Shown here one piece after another: positions 23,764 to 32,759 of a stretch of 64,000 nt of DNA. Both the position numbers and the translations under genes were made by a program. The notes under the pieces were generated by a model that was not told the DNA's origin, ran no database searches, and was given only the letters and a program-made list of their open reading frames with translations. The stretch covers positions 1 to 64,000 of IMG/VR virus record IMGVR_UViG_3300037067_027643; one strand, 5' to 3'. The stretch's first letter is position 1; each line of letters starts with the position of its first letter. Source of the stretch: a virus. Lineage: Duplodnaviria > Caudoviricetes.

Positions 23764-25203
23764 TTATCTAATTATTTCTAAAATTGATATCAACAATGCA
23801 CTTGCACTTAATTCTTTAATTACTCTTAGATTACTTTGATATTCGTATTCTGCTAACTTTAATATAACTTCAGCACTTTTATTGTTACTATAATTATCAA
23901 CTTCATCATACAGTAATTGATACAACGGTGTAAAATCTCTTACCTGACTATCTGCTATCAACTGTCTTATTTCTGTAAGTGATTCTTTTGGTTTCTTTTT
24001 ACTATCTTTTAATATTTCTAATATTTTTAAAATATAGTTTCCTTCTATTAAATTTTGTTTATTTAATGTAAGTGTTCCATTAATAGTATTTTGTTGACAA
24101 GCATTTATTATTTTTCTAATATCTGGATAATTTGTATCTACTAGTACTTTTAAATCTTTTAAATCGTAGGTTACCTGTTCTGTATCCAATATATGTACAA
24201 TTCTTTTAGCAATATCTTTCTTACTAGGTGGAACTACATTAAATACTTGACATCTACTTTGAATTGCTGGACGAATTTTCTCAATGTAGTTCGCCGTCAA
24301 AATAAAGCGTGTACTTCCAGAATAAGTTTCCATTAGATTTCTAAGTAAATCTTGTCCTTGAAATGTTATACCATCACAATTAGAAGTTAATATCTGTTTA
24401 TTTGTAATATAAAAATTATGATTGTTTTCGACTGATAAATCAAATACAGGAATTTCTAAATGAGTTTTTACTATTTTTTCAATTTTTAATAATGATAATT
24501 TTCCTGTTGAATCGGTTGTTACTATTCGTCTATTATTACGAGTATCATTTATAATATCTGTTAATTTTAATTTATAGATATTTTTAAATTTAACTTCGGA
24601 AGAGTATTTAATTTTATTTGGTATCCAATTGTTTTTGTCAACATACACATACCATTTATGATCTTCTGTACATCTAACCATTTCTCCATTTTCAAAATGA
24701 ACTTGATAGATAGGTTTATTTCCCATCTTCCATAGATTAAATGGTTTCCATTCCTGTTCATTAGTATCAAAATTAAAACTCTTTACTAAATCACTATTTT
24801 CTTTTAAATAACGAATTTCGACTAGTTGTTCTACATCATCTCTTTTTATACAGACTAATGTGGTTTCTTCTAAACACTCATCTAAAAATACTACCTTCCA
24901 AGGTTTAAATCCTCCTGTTGTTGCAAATGATTTTACTTTAGTTCTAATAGTTTCGACATTATTTTCATCGGAAGCATTTATATATAAACAATCACATTCT
25001 ATTTCATTAGTTAATATATGACCTGCTGTCGTCTTACCAGTTCCAGGGGTAGAAAACAGCAAAATATGCGGAATGTCTTGATTAGTAACAAATGAACGAA
25101 ATTTATCTATCATTTGGTCATTACCAACATAATCATCAAACTTTCTAGGACGATATTTTTCGCACCAAATTGAATTTTCTTCTTCTTTATTTTCTATTTC
25201 CAT
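23764..25203 (-). CDS. Clamp loader ATPase (T4 gp44/RFC-like) containing a mini-intein
   Basis: WCEKYRP, PGTGKTT, NASD, VFLDE|C...N|CD, SRC. Confidence 0.92.
   Translation of the reverse strand: MEIENKEEENSIWCEKYRPRKFDDYVGNDQMIDKFRSFVTNQDIPHILLFSTPGTGKTTAGHILTNEIECDCLYINASDENNVETIRTKVKSFATTGGFKPWKVVFLDECLEETTLVCIKRDDVEQLVEIRYLKENSDLVKSFNFDTNEQEWKPFNLWKMGNKPIYQVHFENGEMVRCTEDHKWYVYVDKNNWIPNKIKYSSEVKFKNIYKLKLTDIINDTRNNRRIVTTDSTGKLSLLKIEKIVKTHLEIPVFDLSVENNHNFYITNKQILTSNCDGITFQGQDLLRNLMETYSGSTRFILTANYIEKIRPAIQSRCQVFNVVPPSKKDIAKRIVHILDTEQVTYDLKDLKVLVDTNYPDIRKIINACQQNTINGTLTLNKQNLIEGNYILKILEILKDSKKKPKESLTEIRQLIADSQVRDFTPLYQLLYDEVDNYSNNKSAEVILKLAEYEYQSNLRVIKELSASALLISILEIIR
24379..24876 (-). mobile_element. 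Contiguous 166-aa mini-intein in the Walker B of the clamp loader
   Basis: Starts CLEETTLV; block B CTEDHKW; block F VFDLSVENNHNFY; ends ILTSN|C; no endonuclease domain. Confidence 0.9.
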
Positions 25204-26111: not shown

Positions 26112-27381
26112 TACTTTTTATTTATATTATTTAATTGTTATTTATTTTCGTATTCTTAACTAATTGTTATTAATCATTTTAATTTGACTTGGATCCAGTT
26201 CTGTTCTAAGTCTTTCAACTGTTTCTTTTATTGATATATCCCATTCTTTTGCTTTATCTTTGATATATTTAGTAGGTAAAATACAATAATCTGATCCTCC
26301 TCTAATATTTATATTTTGTATCTTATTAGAAATTTCTATTATTTTATCTACTAATTTATGTTCCATTTCTTCTTTATTCATTTTCATTATTATTTTTAAA
26401 TGGAGTTAAATCATCTGACATTTTACAATTTTTAATAGATTTTATTAATTCTTCATTAATTACATCAGTTATTTCAATATGATAATTACATTTTCCATCT
26501 GTATTATGTATGCAAACATTTGGTTTATCTATATAAAATTTTGAATAATCAGGATTATAAAATTTTTCTACTTCATATACAGAATTACATATTCCAAATT
26601 TTCCAGTATCTTCGTTTAATGCAAATACAAAACCTATATTAGCATACTCAAATGCCAATTTAGCATCTTCAACATTAAATATAGCCATTGATTTATATGT
26701 TGGATTAATTGGTGATAAATTTTCGTAATTATCATTAAATATTTTAAGCATATTTTTATTTATTTTCATATTTATAATCCAAATAAACTAATTCTACATT
26801 TGGTGAATCATTTATTGGTTCTATATTATTGCACTCTCTTAATTCAGGAAATTTAAAGCTACTAACTAATGGATGAGCAAATAAACAACCCCAATATGCT
26901 TGATAAATTTCTTTCTTTACATATCTTATATAATGTTTATCAAATTTCTTTTTATTTCTTCTTTTCTTTAAATTTATTTTTGAAAACGGATATAAATCAG
27001 AAATAGTTAATCTTTCATTATTTTGTAATTTATCTAACCAAATTGTAGTTATTTTACTTATTTTTGATTCCATATTTTTTAGTAAATATATTCATTTTTA
27101 TTTTTAACAAAATCAAACCAATGTATTATTTCACAATATCCAGTAAATTCGACTACATATCCTTCATGACCGTCTGGGCAACATTTACCATTTTGTGGAT
27201 TTGGCATTAACATATTAATTTTATTACTATGACATCGTCTATATAGTTTACCACAATAACTACAATGATATGGCATAAATCTCATTATTTTCCTATACCA
27301 ATTTAATTTTACTATTGGTTTTTGTACAACTTGTTCTTCTTTATTCATTTTAATTTTTATTTATTTTAATTTTTATTTATT

Positions 27382-27394
27382 TTAATATACAAAA
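27382..27394 (-). promoter_or_regulatory. Promoter motif TTTTGTATATTAA, copy 4
   Basis: Exact repeat. Confidence 0.7.
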
Positions 27395-27426
27395 TTATTC
27401 TTAATTATTAAAATTTATTTTAACTC

Positions 27427-28344
27427 TTATCCAAAAAATTCATCAATTAGTTCACTATCACCTAAAACTCCCCATCCCAAAGCACTATAGAAATCATTGA
27501 GTTTGTTCTTTAACACACTATCAAAGTTTTTAAACCTATCCATGTAAACAGTTACTAAATCTACAATTTCTGGAGGATCTTCATTATCTCCTTTTAAAGC
27601 AATACTTTCTAATCCATATTTATTCTGTCTTAAATAAGTCCATTTAATCTTATCATTGTTTTGAATAGGTGATATATGTTTATCATATCCTAAATACACT
27701 AATAAATCATTATAACTTAATGCTGCTCTTACATGTGCTGGTGTTCCTTTTAAATAATTAAATGATTCACTATTTTGATAGTCATCCATGTTTTTAATTC
27801 CACTTGGAAACATTATATTAATAGCAGTAAAATCTTTTAATTTATCTTTTAGTGCAAATATTTGTGTATCTATATATTTTTTATTTGCTTTCTTTAATAT
27901 ATCTTTTAATAATTGTTTTGTAAAACTTCTAAATTCTGTTGGGAAGTTAGATCTAACAACATCAATTCCTTTTACTTCTATTTCACCTAGTTCATTTGTT
28001 TCTTTATCATAAATTGGAACTCCCTTTTTATTTATAACTAACAGTGCATATCTTTTCTTTGCTATCCAAAGTCCTGTTTGTGCAATGATTTCCTGTTTAA
28101 ATTTTATTCGATGAGTATCAACATAAAAGAATTTTTTTGTATAAGTATCAAACATTGAATTAACAAATCCTTGTATTTCTGTGGCGAGTGGTAAAATTAA
28201 TTCTACCATCTTATTATTATCTGTTATATCTAAATCAGGAAATCTATGTTTTACTAATGGTACAATTGAAAAAAAATTCGAATCTGTATCAATATAATTT
28301 ATGTAATCTATTTGTTTTCCTTTTTCAATCTTTTTTATTTTCAT
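27427..28344 (-). CDS. polB: Family B DNA polymerase, C-terminal half (motif C and thumb), with a 9-aa intein-C-like leader
   Basis: YIDTDS, KKRYAL, VKGIDVVRS, HVRAALSYN; begins MKIKKIEKG. Confidence 0.92.
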   Translation of the reverse strand: MKIKKIEKGKQIDYINYIDTDSNFFSIVPLVKHRFPDLDITDNNKMVELILPLATEIQGFVNSMFDTYTKKFFYVDTHRIKFKQEIIAQTGLWIAKKRYALLVINKKGVPIYDKETNELGEIEVKGIDVVRSNFPTEFRSFTKQLLKDILKKANKKYIDTQIFALKDKLKDFTAINIMFPSGIKNMDDYQNSESFNYLKGTPAHVRAALSYNDLLVYLGYDKHISPIQNNDKIKWTYLRQNKYGLESIALKGDNEDPPEIVDLVTVYMDRFKNFDSVLKNKLNDFYSALGWGVLGDSELIDEFFG

Positions 28345-29041
28345 ATAATTCTATTATTTTTTGATTTAATAATTTTTTATACATGTATTCGGTTAAATGA
28401 TATTTTTTTCTAAATGAAATTATAGTATCATAAATTTGTCCATCTCTATTATCAATAATTGGCTTTGCTTGTGTTTTTGCTTGTTTATTAAAATCTGATA
28501 TTTTCTTCCTTCTTAATGCTTCATTTTCTACTGTTGTTTTTCTACATTTAGCAGATTCACTCATCTTTTGTATTGTATCATCGGAATAAATATTAGTTTT
28601 TCCTTTATTCCATGGTATTTGTCCAATATGCGCATCACTTAGTTGTTTGCAACGTTCTGGACTATATTTAATATGCCAACATGGACTTTTTTCTCCTTTA
28701 GATCTTTCCGAGCACATTTTTTTATATTCTTCCGTATGTGTTTTACCTGACCAATATGCATTTTCATCATGTCGACAAGAACCACCTTTTAATATATTAT
28801 ATCCATTTGGTGCTTTTGTATTTAATTCCTTAATCCAAAATATTTCTCGAATATTTAATTCTTCTTTTGTATTACACTCTTCTATAATTTCTTTTTTAAA
28901 ATTTTCTTTGCCATATTTTTTAATAGCTAACCTTATTAATTTTCCACTACCCCAATAACATTTAAATCTAATTCCAACAGATTTTGTTTGCCCAATATAG
29001 ATTTTACCATTAATTAAATTTGTTATTTTATAAATTACCAT
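28325..29041 (-). mobile_element. Free-standing GIY-YIG homing endonuclease with NUMOD3-like repeats, splitting polB
   Basis: VIYKITNLINGKIYIGQT, YWGSG, REIFWI, GYNI; HTEEYKK.SE and PWNKGK repeats. Confidence 0.9.
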
Positions 29042-31020
29042 TATAATTCAATTATATCATCTGATTCTTGTAGATTTTTAACATATATATTTAAAGATTG
29101 ATTATCTCTAATAACTCCTATTTCATCGTTACCATTTAATTTTAATATTTCTCCATTTTCCAATATAATTTCATATATATTTCCAAGTTCATTTGTAAAA
29201 AAATAATTAGCTGATTTTTGTGCAAATTGTACAATCTGCTGTCCGCAAATAGTTACACTTGTGGCGTTATCAAGATCATAAAATCTAAATGAATCTAATC
29301 CTAATACACCATAAAATATATTTAATAAAATCTTTTGAACTAATTGTCTCAAACTATAAAAATCATATAATTGATCATTTCCCTCTTTACCATATTTATT
29401 TGCTAAATCTTGTGATATAACTCTCTCATCAAACCATTTAGATAAAATAGTTGGTATGATTCCTCTTATATCAGTTCTATACATTACTCCACTTGCGGCT
29501 AATGAATATTTATTTTCAATAATCATTTCTTTAATCTTACTAACTGACATTTTAATAATATCTCCTTGATAATATACATTATAAATATATTCATTATCTT
29601 TTTGGAATACATCCATATTATATTCCAATATTTTTCCAATCTTCGTTTCGGGAGAAATATTTAATGTCATAATAATATTGGGATACATTGAAGTGGCATC
29701 TAAATCTATTAACCAATCATATAATCCTGGTATAGGTTCTTTTACAAACGCACCTTCAAAATGAAATCCAACTTCATAAGAAGTTAATATGCTTACATCA
29801 AGAGGATTTTTTAATGAGAATTTATTTCCTTTGTATAATACATATTCAATATCATAAAATTTACTTTTACTCTTTTTAAATCTAAGTATACCGCTCTTAG
29901 GAACATCTTCCTGTATATTTTCTTTACAAATAATTTCAGTACATCCAATATCATGATTTCTACTTAGTTTTATTTGTTTCCATGTCTTCTTGTTTGTAAC
30001 AATTTTATTATTATTTTTTGTAAATGTTAAACAAGCCCCGTCTACAATTCTACTGGATGTAAATATATCTTCGTATGGAATGTGAGCTTTGTGAGCAACA
30101 CCAATTGCTAAATTAATAAATGTATTTTTTTTATCAATTTCCACTATTAAAACAACATCATTAATATTATATTTACAATATCCAACAATATCATTTTTAT
30201 AAAAAGCATCTAAATCACCTTCAAAAGTCATCTTACCATACCCTAATTCTAATCGAGATATAAAATCTAGTTTATACATTGGCTGTTCATTCTGAGTATA
30301 ATTTTTATACAATAACATATAATCTAAATGAACTACACCATAAATCATATATTCTCTTCTCATAGTTGACCAGGTAACTATTCCGATCGGACTTAATCTA
30401 CTAGCAATAGCTTTACCTACTACTTTACATGAACGATTATATAAGTAAGGAACGTCAAAACGCGCTGAATTCCAACCTGTTATTAGAGTAACACCTAATT
30501 GCTCATATCTACTATAAAATTTAAGTAATAAATCTCTTTCACTATTACATGAAACTATTTCTACTTCATTACCTTTATCATCTGCGATAAATCCATTTTC
30601 TAATTTTCCTTCTACATCTAATATAAAAGCACTATAACTATTAGTTGGTTTAAAATAATATGATATTGCTGTAATCTCTTGTTCTGCTAAATCTGCTAAT
30701 GGAAATCCTTCATCTGATTTTACTTCTATATCAAAAAAGAATTCTCGATGTCCTGTAGCTACTTCATCACTAGTATGATATAAATCTATAAGTGTACGCA
30801 TCTCTGGATTAACATCACTTTCATACATTAAACCATTTGCTATATCACTTTCACTCCATCCTGATACTCGTTTTACTCTTTGATTGTCAATAGTAGTATA
30901 AGTTCCCTTTGGATCTAATTTATATCCATACCTTTTATAAGGAAAATTATCATATCCAGCTTTGTCATCCCATAAATGGATTAAGTTTGTTTCTCTTTGG
31001 TAATTTATACAATAATACAT
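29041..31020 (-). CDS. polB: Family B DNA polymerase, N-terminal half (3'-5' exonuclease, motifs A and B), with a 46-aa Hint-like tail
   Basis: FFDIE, GWNSARFDVPY, YNINDV, DLDATSMYP, QKILLNIFYG. Confidence 0.93.
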   Translation of the reverse strand: MYYCINYQRETNLIHLWDDKAGYDNFPYKRYGYKLDPKGTYTTIDNQRVKRVSGWSESDIANGLMYESDVNPEMRTLIDLYHTSDEVATGHREFFFDIEVKSDEGFPLADLAEQEITAISYYFKPTNSYSAFILDVEGKLENGFIADDKGNEVEIVSCNSERDLLLKFYSRYEQLGVTLITGWNSARFDVPYLYNRSCKVVGKAIASRLSPIGIVTWSTMRREYMIYGVVHLDYMLLYKNYTQNEQPMYKLDFISRLELGYGKMTFEGDLDAFYKNDIVGYCKYNINDVVLIVEIDKKNTFINLAIGVAHKAHIPYEDIFTSSRIVDGACLTFTKNNNKIVTNKKTWKQIKLSRNHDIGCTEIICKENIQEDVPKSGILRFKKSKSKFYDIEYVLYKGNKFSLKNPLDVSILTSYEVGFHFEGAFVKEPIPGLYDWLIDLDATSMYPNIIMTLNISPETKIGKILEYNMDVFQKDNEYIYNVYYQGDIIKMSVSKIKEMIIENKYSLAASGVMYRTDIRGIIPTILSKWFDERVISQDLANKYGKEGNDQLYDFYSLRQLVQKILLNIFYGVLGLDSFRFYDLDNATSVTICGQQIVQFAQKSANYFFTNELGNIYEIILENGEILKLNGNDEIGVIRDNQSLNIYVKNLQESDDIIEL

Positions 31021-31091
31021 AATTTTAATTTTTAATTTTTAATAAAATAATTGATGCACCGATAATAATGATTTTCAACACTTTACAGTAT

Positions 31092-32759
31092 CTACTCTAA
31101 CAAACTTTCGTTTGCATTATTATTATATTTGTTATTCTTTTCAAAATAATCATCCAAAACCTTTCTAATTGATTCTTTACCTAATCGTGGTTTTGGTATG
31201 AACCAATTAGTCGTTTTATCAAGTTTTAAAAATGACTGAGATAGAACATTTATCTCTTTGAATTGTTTTATATTTTTACTTGCATTAAAATCGGCATTTT
31301 CTTCGTGACCACATTCCAAACACTTAAAATGCTCTTGAGTCTTTCTATTGTTTCTATCAACATAACCACAACGCGAACAACGTTGTGATGTATAATATGA
31401 TGGAACAATAGTTAACTGTATGTTTCGATTTCTACACTGATTAATAAGAATGTTTTTCATACTTACTAAATGAAGAATTCTGATTAATCTTGAATATTTT
31501 ATATTATAAAATTCTTCACTTCTACACCAAGATTTATCTCCAAGAACTAATCCTTCACAAACGATATGATTATATCCAGATTTTATTGTTAATTTAATTA
31601 AGTCACTAACATTCAAATTTTGTTCTGCTATTAAACGTCTATTCCAAGTTTGTTTTCTAGCAATTAATTTATATTTTTGCTTTATTTGTTTTTCTGTTAA
31701 ATCTTTATCAATTGTCTCATACATAAGTTTAGATTTTTTATCTAATTTCAATTGAGTTTTAATATAATTCTTAATTAAATTTCTATTAAAATCAACTGTC
31801 TTATCGTTTGAAAGTCTAAATAAATTATGTTTTAAGTTGGTATCTACTCCGGCTATATTGTTACAATCAGAAATAGTTTCTCTATTTCCTTTTTTATGTA
31901 ATACTATTTTTATTTTATTTTTAACAAATTGTATTGTATAAGATGCTTGTTCTTTATTATAATTATCTAAGTTTCCGTGATATTTTTTACTATATTTAAT
32001 TGGAATGTAAATTCTACCACATTTATTAATATGTCTAAAACCACTTAAAACAATATAATGAGTTAATATCGATTTATTATTTTTATTCTTAATTATTATA
32101 TCTAAATGAGCATTTACTCCATTATAAGTAAGTTCTTTAAACAAACAAGGTTTAGAGAATAGTTCTTTAATTAGTCTTGTTTTTCTATCATTTGCTAATT
32201 TTAAAATTCTGTCTCCAAATTTATCTAAATAATAAAGAATACTTTTATAAAATTCAATTTGTTCTAAACTTTTAATTGTATTAACATTATCAATTTCTTT
32301 AATTAAATAATTAACAGTTGTTTCATTGTAATATTTAGCTAAATATGAAATAACTTTGGTTAAGGGAGATGATTTTAATGATATATGAAATATTTTAATA
32401 TCACCCTTATTATGTTTCTTAGTAGTTATTTTATAATATTTAAATGACAATGGTTTTGATTGAATTTTAAATATAATTTTTTTATTTAATTCTTGAAACT
32501 TATTTTGATAAGCTGTATATACATCAGTTAATGCTGGCTGAATTTCTCTCCCAACTAACCCATCTATTTGAGTATTAAATTGAATCTGAAAATCAAATTT
32601 AGATATATTTTGAAATTTAATTGGATTATCACATATTATTTGACTTAATTCATTCTTAAAATTTCTAATCTTAACAGCCTTATCATGTAAATGATTATAC
32701 TTAATACTGTTTAAATCAGTAGAATAAAATGAAATTGAATATGTTGATTCCTGTAACAT
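31092..32759 (-). mobile_element. tnpB: TnpB/Cas12f-like RNA-guided nuclease, no adjacent tnpA
   Basis: RuvC-I GVDTN, RuvC-II IVCEGL, YTSQRCSRCG...FKCLECG Zn finger, RuvC-III NADFNASKNI. Confidence 0.85.

Follow-up and report, generated by a model that had tools for sequence, protein, structure and literature searches.

We analyzed a split gene for a T4-type family B DNA polymerase (PolB) in the viral record IMGVR_UViG_3300037067_027643, of which the first 64,000 nucleotides (hereafter the window) form part of a 286-kb genome with 25% G+C. The gene is interrupted by a free-standing endonuclease gene, and at the break its two halves carry an acidic tail and a basic leader, which we trace to the central part of a split intein. 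With a probability of roughly 0.7, this shrunken, non-splicing centre holds the two PolB chains together without joining them.

Analysis of open reading frames (ORFs) and Pfam domains revealed three minus-strand ORFs at this locus: a PolB N-half (29041-31020, 659 amino acids), an endonuclease (28325..29041, 238 amino acids) and a PolB C-half (27427-28344, 305 amino acids). The stop codon of the N-half and the start codon of the endonuclease have one base in common (TAATG), and the 3' end of the endonuclease gene overlaps the start of the C-half by 20 nt. The polymerase is of the T4 type (gp43), as indicated by an alignment to RB69 gp43 (E 1e-54) and by the YIDTDS motif in the C-half. The N-half proper (residues 1-613; 29182..31020) comprises the exonuclease domain, motif A and motif B (Pfam DNA_pol_B_exo1 and DNA_pol_B). 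Since the alignment to RB69 gp43 extends no further than about residue 613-616 (...NELG), the remaining residues 614-659 (29044..29181) represent an extra, acidic tail of 46 amino acids. On the other side of the break, the C-half starts with the basic leader MKIKKIEKG (residues 1-9; 28318..28344), followed by the C-half proper with motif C and thumb (27427..28317), which begins with KQIDYINYIDTDS and was assigned by Pfam DNA_pol_B and by tblastn to phage PolBs. The intervening gene encodes a homing endonuclease with an N-terminal GIY-YIG domain (PF01541, 36.7 bits, E 5e-9) and NUMOD3 DNA-binding repeats (PF07460, 29.5 bits, E 7e-7), both above the cut-off.

Unsplit relatives, namely Microcystis phage Mel-JY01, 838-amino-acid metagenomic PolBs and the closest relative L006, which is not split at ELG, lack both tail and leader, and their ELG-like residues run directly into YxDTDS. 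The first-pass annotation of this locus, made from the sequence alone, had described a PolB split by a GIY-YIG gene, with a tail and a leader whose removal restores T4-like spacing; both the extra nature of the two pieces and the restored spacing were borne out. An identical arrangement across both junctions was found in an independent landfill metagenome, where read joints with short sides at 85% likeness were treated as noise.

The origin of the tail was traced with a profile built from five PolB tails (A2); among 1.84 billion proteins, this profile gave 71 matches at E<=1e-3, almost all of them located at the extreme C-terminus of the matched protein. These comprised PolB N-halves with the tail placed right after ELG, other enzymes with a truncated tail, and intein N-fragments with Cys1 and TxxH, the last class lying in reductase and DnaE genes (P0255 with E 6e-8, P0261, P0289 and P0302). 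All five N-fragments scanned (P0261, P0264, P0282, P0289 and P0302) contained Pfam Hint, Hint_2 or Intein_splicing, with the curated cut-off being reached by P0261 and P0289. The tail of the window itself shows a weak but in-register match to Intein_splicing (PF14890; positions 34-93 of 155, E 7e-4), and three of six tails match this family independently. It ends at position 93 of the model, like the true N-fragments P0261, P0264, P0282 and P0289 (P0302 ends at 94), and the break lies at the conserved endonuclease-insertion or split site of inteins.

The fold points in the same direction. An AlphaFold2 (AF2) model of N-half residues 604-659, i.e. the tail and the ten preceding residues, showed five strands at a mean predicted local distance difference test score (pLDDT) of 79, with the first eight residues being disordered. 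Hint or intein structures made up 16 of the 20 top rows of a Foldseek search with this model (best 5o9j, root-mean-square deviation 1.2 over 40 columns), and all 28 entries listed by VIA-align were Hint folds (Z 2.2-5.5), with residues 45-96 of Npu DnaE aligning to the tail model. Structure neighbours in the Atlas were the ends of viral DnaE, reductase, terminase, PolB and intein clusters, which we take as a lead only. Based on the profile search, the Pfam positions and the fold match to Npu DnaE, homology of the tail to the second half of split-intein N-fragments is well supported. An NCBIfam search of the tail returned nothing relevant, and no second tail was found in the phage's own genome with the tail profile. 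The window's clamp-loader large subunit (23764-25203, minus strand) harbours a complete contiguous mini-intein at approximately 24391-24873 (Intein_splicing E 3e-10; starting with CLEETT and ending in TSN before a C). Comparing the tail profile with this intein by hhalign gave a weak alignment to its first symmetry unit at a probability under 1%, of which the internal pseudo-symmetry of the Hint fold may be the cause.

The leader can be placed with the help of contiguous inteins among the A2 matches. In these, only a few residues separate the tail-like region from MKVKSIKEAG (P0271) or from KIKSITPIG / KIKLIKKIG (P0285), after which blocks F and G follow. The PolB leader matches this first C-fragment strand, cut off at the Gly. 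A conserved leader opens the C-half in about 30 clusters of PolB C-halves of about 300 amino acids. A strict leader pattern fitted one of the 367 ORFs of the phage's own 286-kb genome, the C-half itself, and a leader-type start was present in 10/10 partners of tail-bearing split genes with a readable partner; the pairing of tail and leader is not by chance. The first-pass annotation had already attributed both pieces to an intein, and the profile search, the Pfam and Hint-fold matches and the strand seen in contiguous inteins all agree with this. Its description of a "permuted" half-Hint did not hold: mapped on the gp41-1 structure (bioRxiv 10.1101/546465), what remains runs from strand b3 through b4 and the globular lobe of the second symmetry unit to b6, a contiguous central Hint segment broken at the canonical split site.

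Of the Hint fold, the two halves in the window retain the middle part and one leader strand. The whole first lobe is missing, including block A with its Cys/Ser/Thr1, as the tail opens with NIYEI directly after the polymerase ELG. In block B, NGND takes the place of the TxxH seen as TGNH/TPNH in the aligned true inteins. Blocks F and G with the terminal HN are likewise absent, the 9-amino-acid leader running straight into KQIDYINYIDTDS, and neither junction offers a Cys/Ser/Thr nucleophile. Because the first lobe, Cys/Ser1, TxxH, block F, HN and the junction nucleophiles are all missing, as the first-pass annotation had noted for the catalytic blocks, splicing by known chemistry is excluded.

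The two strands of the charge zipper are among the parts that remain. The tail of the window has an overall charge of -7 (-2 in its first strand) and the leader one of +3, and opposite signs were found in 10/10 pairs, ranging from -2 to -6 for the first tail strand and from +2 to +6 for the leader. In the consensus, Glu alternates along the first tail strand (YEIxLENG type) and Lys along the leader (KIKKI type). In the gp41-1 structure, b3 and b6 are the antiparallel charge-zipper strands, which have been tied to the "capture" step of fragment association (bioRxiv 10.1101/546465). In working split inteins, the acidic first strand of the tail type and the basic first strand of the C-fragment pair in an antiparallel fashion, starting the association of the fragments.

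We therefore propose that only the docking part of a split intein has been retained here, a likely function of tail and leader. The polymerase would be made as two polypeptides which are never joined, with a small acidic beta domain ending the N-half and a basic beta strand beginning the C-half; together, these are the central part of a split intein from which the first lobe (block A) and the two final strands (blocks F and G) have been lost. Antiparallel pairing of the two would put the last polymerase residues of the N-half (ELG) beside the first of the C-half (KQIDY) and would close the palm domain at a distance of 10 residues upstream of the catalytic DTD. Tail and leader are separated at the classic endonuclease-insertion site of inteins, which the GIY-YIG gene occupies here. 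Homology, fold, conservation, recurrence, charge complementarity and the absence of every splicing residue are established by the comparisons; that the two pieces bind, and that the enzyme depends on it, we infer. A complex prediction of the tail (alignment A3) with the leader region (A4) gave a score of 0.24, with the mark at 0.32, and was counted neither for nor against binding.

The tail is as conserved as the polymerase: its identity to the window amounts to 34-55%, while the polymerase part of these proteins reaches 38-52%. Among PolB genes, the pair of tail and leader is kept around a homologous GIY-YIG gene at the same place (L007), around a zinc-ribbon ORF (L004) and around a Vsr-like remnant (L017). 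In L002 and L003 it is kept without an intervening gene; here, a gap of 33 nt separates the called genes, and the reading frame of the leader overlaps with the tail's end. A 484-kb phage (L001, LR756508.1, 258000-269000) shows the same break, with 3 kb containing four unrelated ORFs between the halves; the PolB of this phage additionally harbours two complete inteins, located in motif B and between YTD and TDS, respectively.

The pair is also present on other enzymes, a positive outcome of the search around other endonucleases that the first-pass annotation had proposed: on the large subunit of ribonucleotide reductase, in overlapping genes (L008), on a UvsW helicase around an HNH gene (L009) and on DnaE, while PolA-like tails occur among the A2 matches. 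The DnaE example stems from the cultured Tenacibaculum phage Larrie (L012, ON950054.1, 3330-3720), in which DnaE is split at the classic FERFLN site. A truncated intein tail is followed by a 2-nt gap and a MKVVKIKE leader before LPDIDSDF, and the annotation of each half reads simply Pol III alpha. A tblastn search of the tail against cultured phages gave E values of 0.8-7 only; on inspection, the hits in Larrie and BS-TP1 proved to be real DnaE tails.

A tree of 66 tail-like segments placed most truncated tails together irrespective of their host gene (5 label changes versus 22 expected), which serves as a hint only given its weak support (82/44) and the choice of its rows with the PolB-tail profile. 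Since this tree also places one DnaE pair within the true reductase inteins, truncation probably occurred more than once. Further hints at mobility come from the ends of the endonuclease ORFs, which run into the leader codons ATGAAAAT and stop there: GIY-YIG in the window (28325-28344, ...YENKKD), zinc-ribbon in L004 (5170-5185, ...INEN) and HNH in L009 (5518-5528, ...IYEN). Ends within leader codons suggest repeated invasion of a pre-existing tail/leader junction. The closest relative, L006 (2-3138), is 87-88% identical over the C-half extein and carries, at YIDTD before the S, a canonical split intein with Ser1 together with a gene for a 378-amino-acid Vsr-like endonuclease. Far from the junction, L006 and the window are about 100% identical, but over the roughly 100 residues that flank it on each side the identity drops to 52-64%, a dip that fits the import of different cassettes with co-conversion of the flanks. 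Whether tail, optional endonuclease and leader form a portable gene-splitting kit, i.e. one family of truncated, non-catalytic split inteins moving between essential genes (PolB, DnaE, ribonucleotide reductase, UvsW and probably PolA) with its own non-covalent ligation device, is a tentative extension to which we give somewhat less than even odds.

The polymerase halves might also assemble via their native palm interface alone, as in other split PolBs, with tail and leader being tolerated vestiges of a decayed split intein. Such assembly has a parallel in gp43A/43B of Aeromonas phage 44RR, which is split elsewhere (before motif B) and lacks an intein-like tail, and some C-halves have a very short leader or none at all (P0220, P0238). 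However, useless DNA is quickly deleted from phage genomes, whereas this tail is as conserved as the enzyme and persists after loss of the endonuclease (L002, L008, Larrie), and neither the charge complementarity in all ten pairs nor the same truncated form on four different enzymes would be expected of vestiges; we consider this reading unlikely. A smaller chance still is given to the idea that the module serves the mobile element, with tail, endonuclease and leader forming one cassette in which the pair mainly breaks the nuclease target and provides the downstream half with a start codon and coupling. In its favour, the endonuclease ORFs of three families all end within leader codons, and the drop in identity to L006 on each side of the junction is as cassette import with co-conversion would predict. 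Yet a few bases would suffice for target disruption and a start codon, making a conserved, folded domain of 46 amino acids unnecessary, and the pair persists where no endonuclease remains. This reading is, moreover, compatible with the clasp explanation rather than an alternative to it.

For a joining of the halves after all, be it by splicing of an endonuclease-bearing intron or by non-canonical protein splicing, we found no evidence beyond the site's place in a gene and clade rich in real inteins, and we regard it as extremely improbable. A group I or II intron was rejected because no Rfam family matched at E<=1 in 26500-31500, the ORFs overlap, and the halves of relatives lie only 0-33 nt apart, so that there is no intron signal and, as the first-pass annotation had noted, no room for an intron; protein splicing, in turn, would lack Cys/Ser/Thr at either junction as well as TxxH and HN.

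Several observations weigh against a non-covalent clasp built from an intein remnant. Owing to the small size of the piece, the structural Z-scores are all low and none exceeds 5.5. When PDB sequences were searched with the tail profile, only chance-level matches and no intein came up, and several truncated tails, when scanned alone, miss Pfam Intein_splicing. In the mobE-split NrdA of phage Aeh1, deletion of the tails abolished activity, yet the heterodimer still formed (Crona et al. 2011, PMC3045599). By analogy, the module in the window may be required for the geometry or for higher-order assembly, and not for the association as such.

The arrangement can be compared to fractured genes, in which split-intein halves flank a free-standing homing-endonuclease gene (Dassa et al. 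2009, PMC2677866). Both show the same order, i.e. the host N-part with an intein N-piece, the endonuclease gene, and an intein C-piece with the host C-part, as well as a break at the canonical split site. Unlike fractured genes, the window lacks the first lobe with Cys/Ser1, TxxH, block F and the terminal HN with its nucleophile, and because no peptide bond can form, the product must stay two chains. True fractured genes exist in close relatives, namely the L006 PolB (between DTD and S, with the Vsr-like gene) and the dUTPase and clamp loader of L002; in the latter gene, two pieces with split-intein halves are separated by an ORF. The distinction from genes with complete split inteins drawn in the first-pass annotation is correct as to the deleted splicing residues, but the system is less unprecedented than was implied, as functional assembly tails have been published (PMC3045599; bioRxiv 10.1101/2022.08.31.505936).

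These published cases are the Aeh1 NrdA tails, which had no database match and for which a degenerate intein was speculated (PMC3045599), and T4 genes 39/60 of the mobA element with their C- and N-terminal extensions (CTE/NTE), terminal extensions having been proposed as a general strategy (Manning and colleagues, bioRxiv 10.1101/2022.08.31.505936). As in the window, an essential gene is divided into two ORFs by a free-standing endonuclease, with oppositely charged extensions that are absent from unsplit homologues and kept after endonuclease loss. Compared by their descriptions, the Aeh1 tails (basic C-tail, acidic N-tail) have the reverse polarity of those in the window. In contrast to Aeh1, an intein origin is demonstrable here and the same module occurs on several enzymes. 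With the "capture and collapse" zipper of gp41-1 and Npu DnaE (bioRxiv 10.1101/546465), the window shares both strands, the alternation of acidic and basic residues along them and the polarity of Npu DnaE, with an acidic N-piece and a basic C-piece. While the zipper is the first step before folding of the catalytic core in true inteins, it would be the end state here.

A T4-type PolB from two adjacent genes is also known from Aeromonas phages 44RR and 25, with a GIY-YIG gene in between in phage 25 (Petrov et al. 2010, as cited in PMC2677866 and PMC3045599). We rejected these as the same phenomenon, since the split site differs: the 44RR gp43 break lies in the fingers, before motif B, and comes without an intein-like tail or a MKIKKI leader.

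The PolB of the window thus belongs to a known kind, assembly tails on endonuclease-split genes, for which an intein origin had already been guessed; new is the sequence and fold evidence supporting this origin. It indicates a decay of protein splicing into plain docking, so far only guessed for the Aeh1 reductase tails, and shows that what survives is the charge-zipper region of split inteins. Our literature search found no paper on truncated split inteins as assembly tails. These findings suggest that, in addition to introns and inteins, there is a third common route by which essential phage genes can accommodate selfish nucleases, and they would account for many polymerase, reductase and helicase genes recorded as "truncated" in phage annotations. 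If the reading as a portable gene-splitting kit is true, free-standing endonucleases could settle inside reading frames without RNA or protein splicing, and the pair of 46 and 9 residues would be a natural minimal heterodimerisation tag with possible use in protein engineering. Bench tests of the idea are feasible, since the module is present on DnaE of the cultured phage Larrie.

Beyond the tail/leader junction, the PolB genes of this group show two further peculiarities. In the C-halves of four diverged relatives, a possible conserved 5-nt ribosome hop lies within motif C: the frame runs from the leader to YxDT and a stop codon and resumes with TDSVF... 5 nt on in another frame (L002:4748-4770, ACG TAA CT GAT; L004:5228-5250, ACT TAA CT GAT; L013:3490-3512, ACG TGA CG GAT; L017:4160-4182, ACT TGA CT GAT). 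With Thr codons both right before the stop and at +5, such a hop would restore YxDTDS, and the site is the insertion site of the pol-c type intein. No start codon is conserved at this frame break, and the window itself has an intact YIDTDS. Compared to RB69 gp43, the N-half in the window additionally contains an insertion of about 75 residues just before motif A (residues 344-420; 29761-29991, minus strand) with no Pfam match, which is common to P0005, L007 and LR756508 and absent from P0006-P0009. Immediately upstream of the N-half, the window encodes a TnpB-like protein of 555 amino acids (31092-32759, minus strand) with a Cas12f1-like TNB domain (E 3.5e-17).

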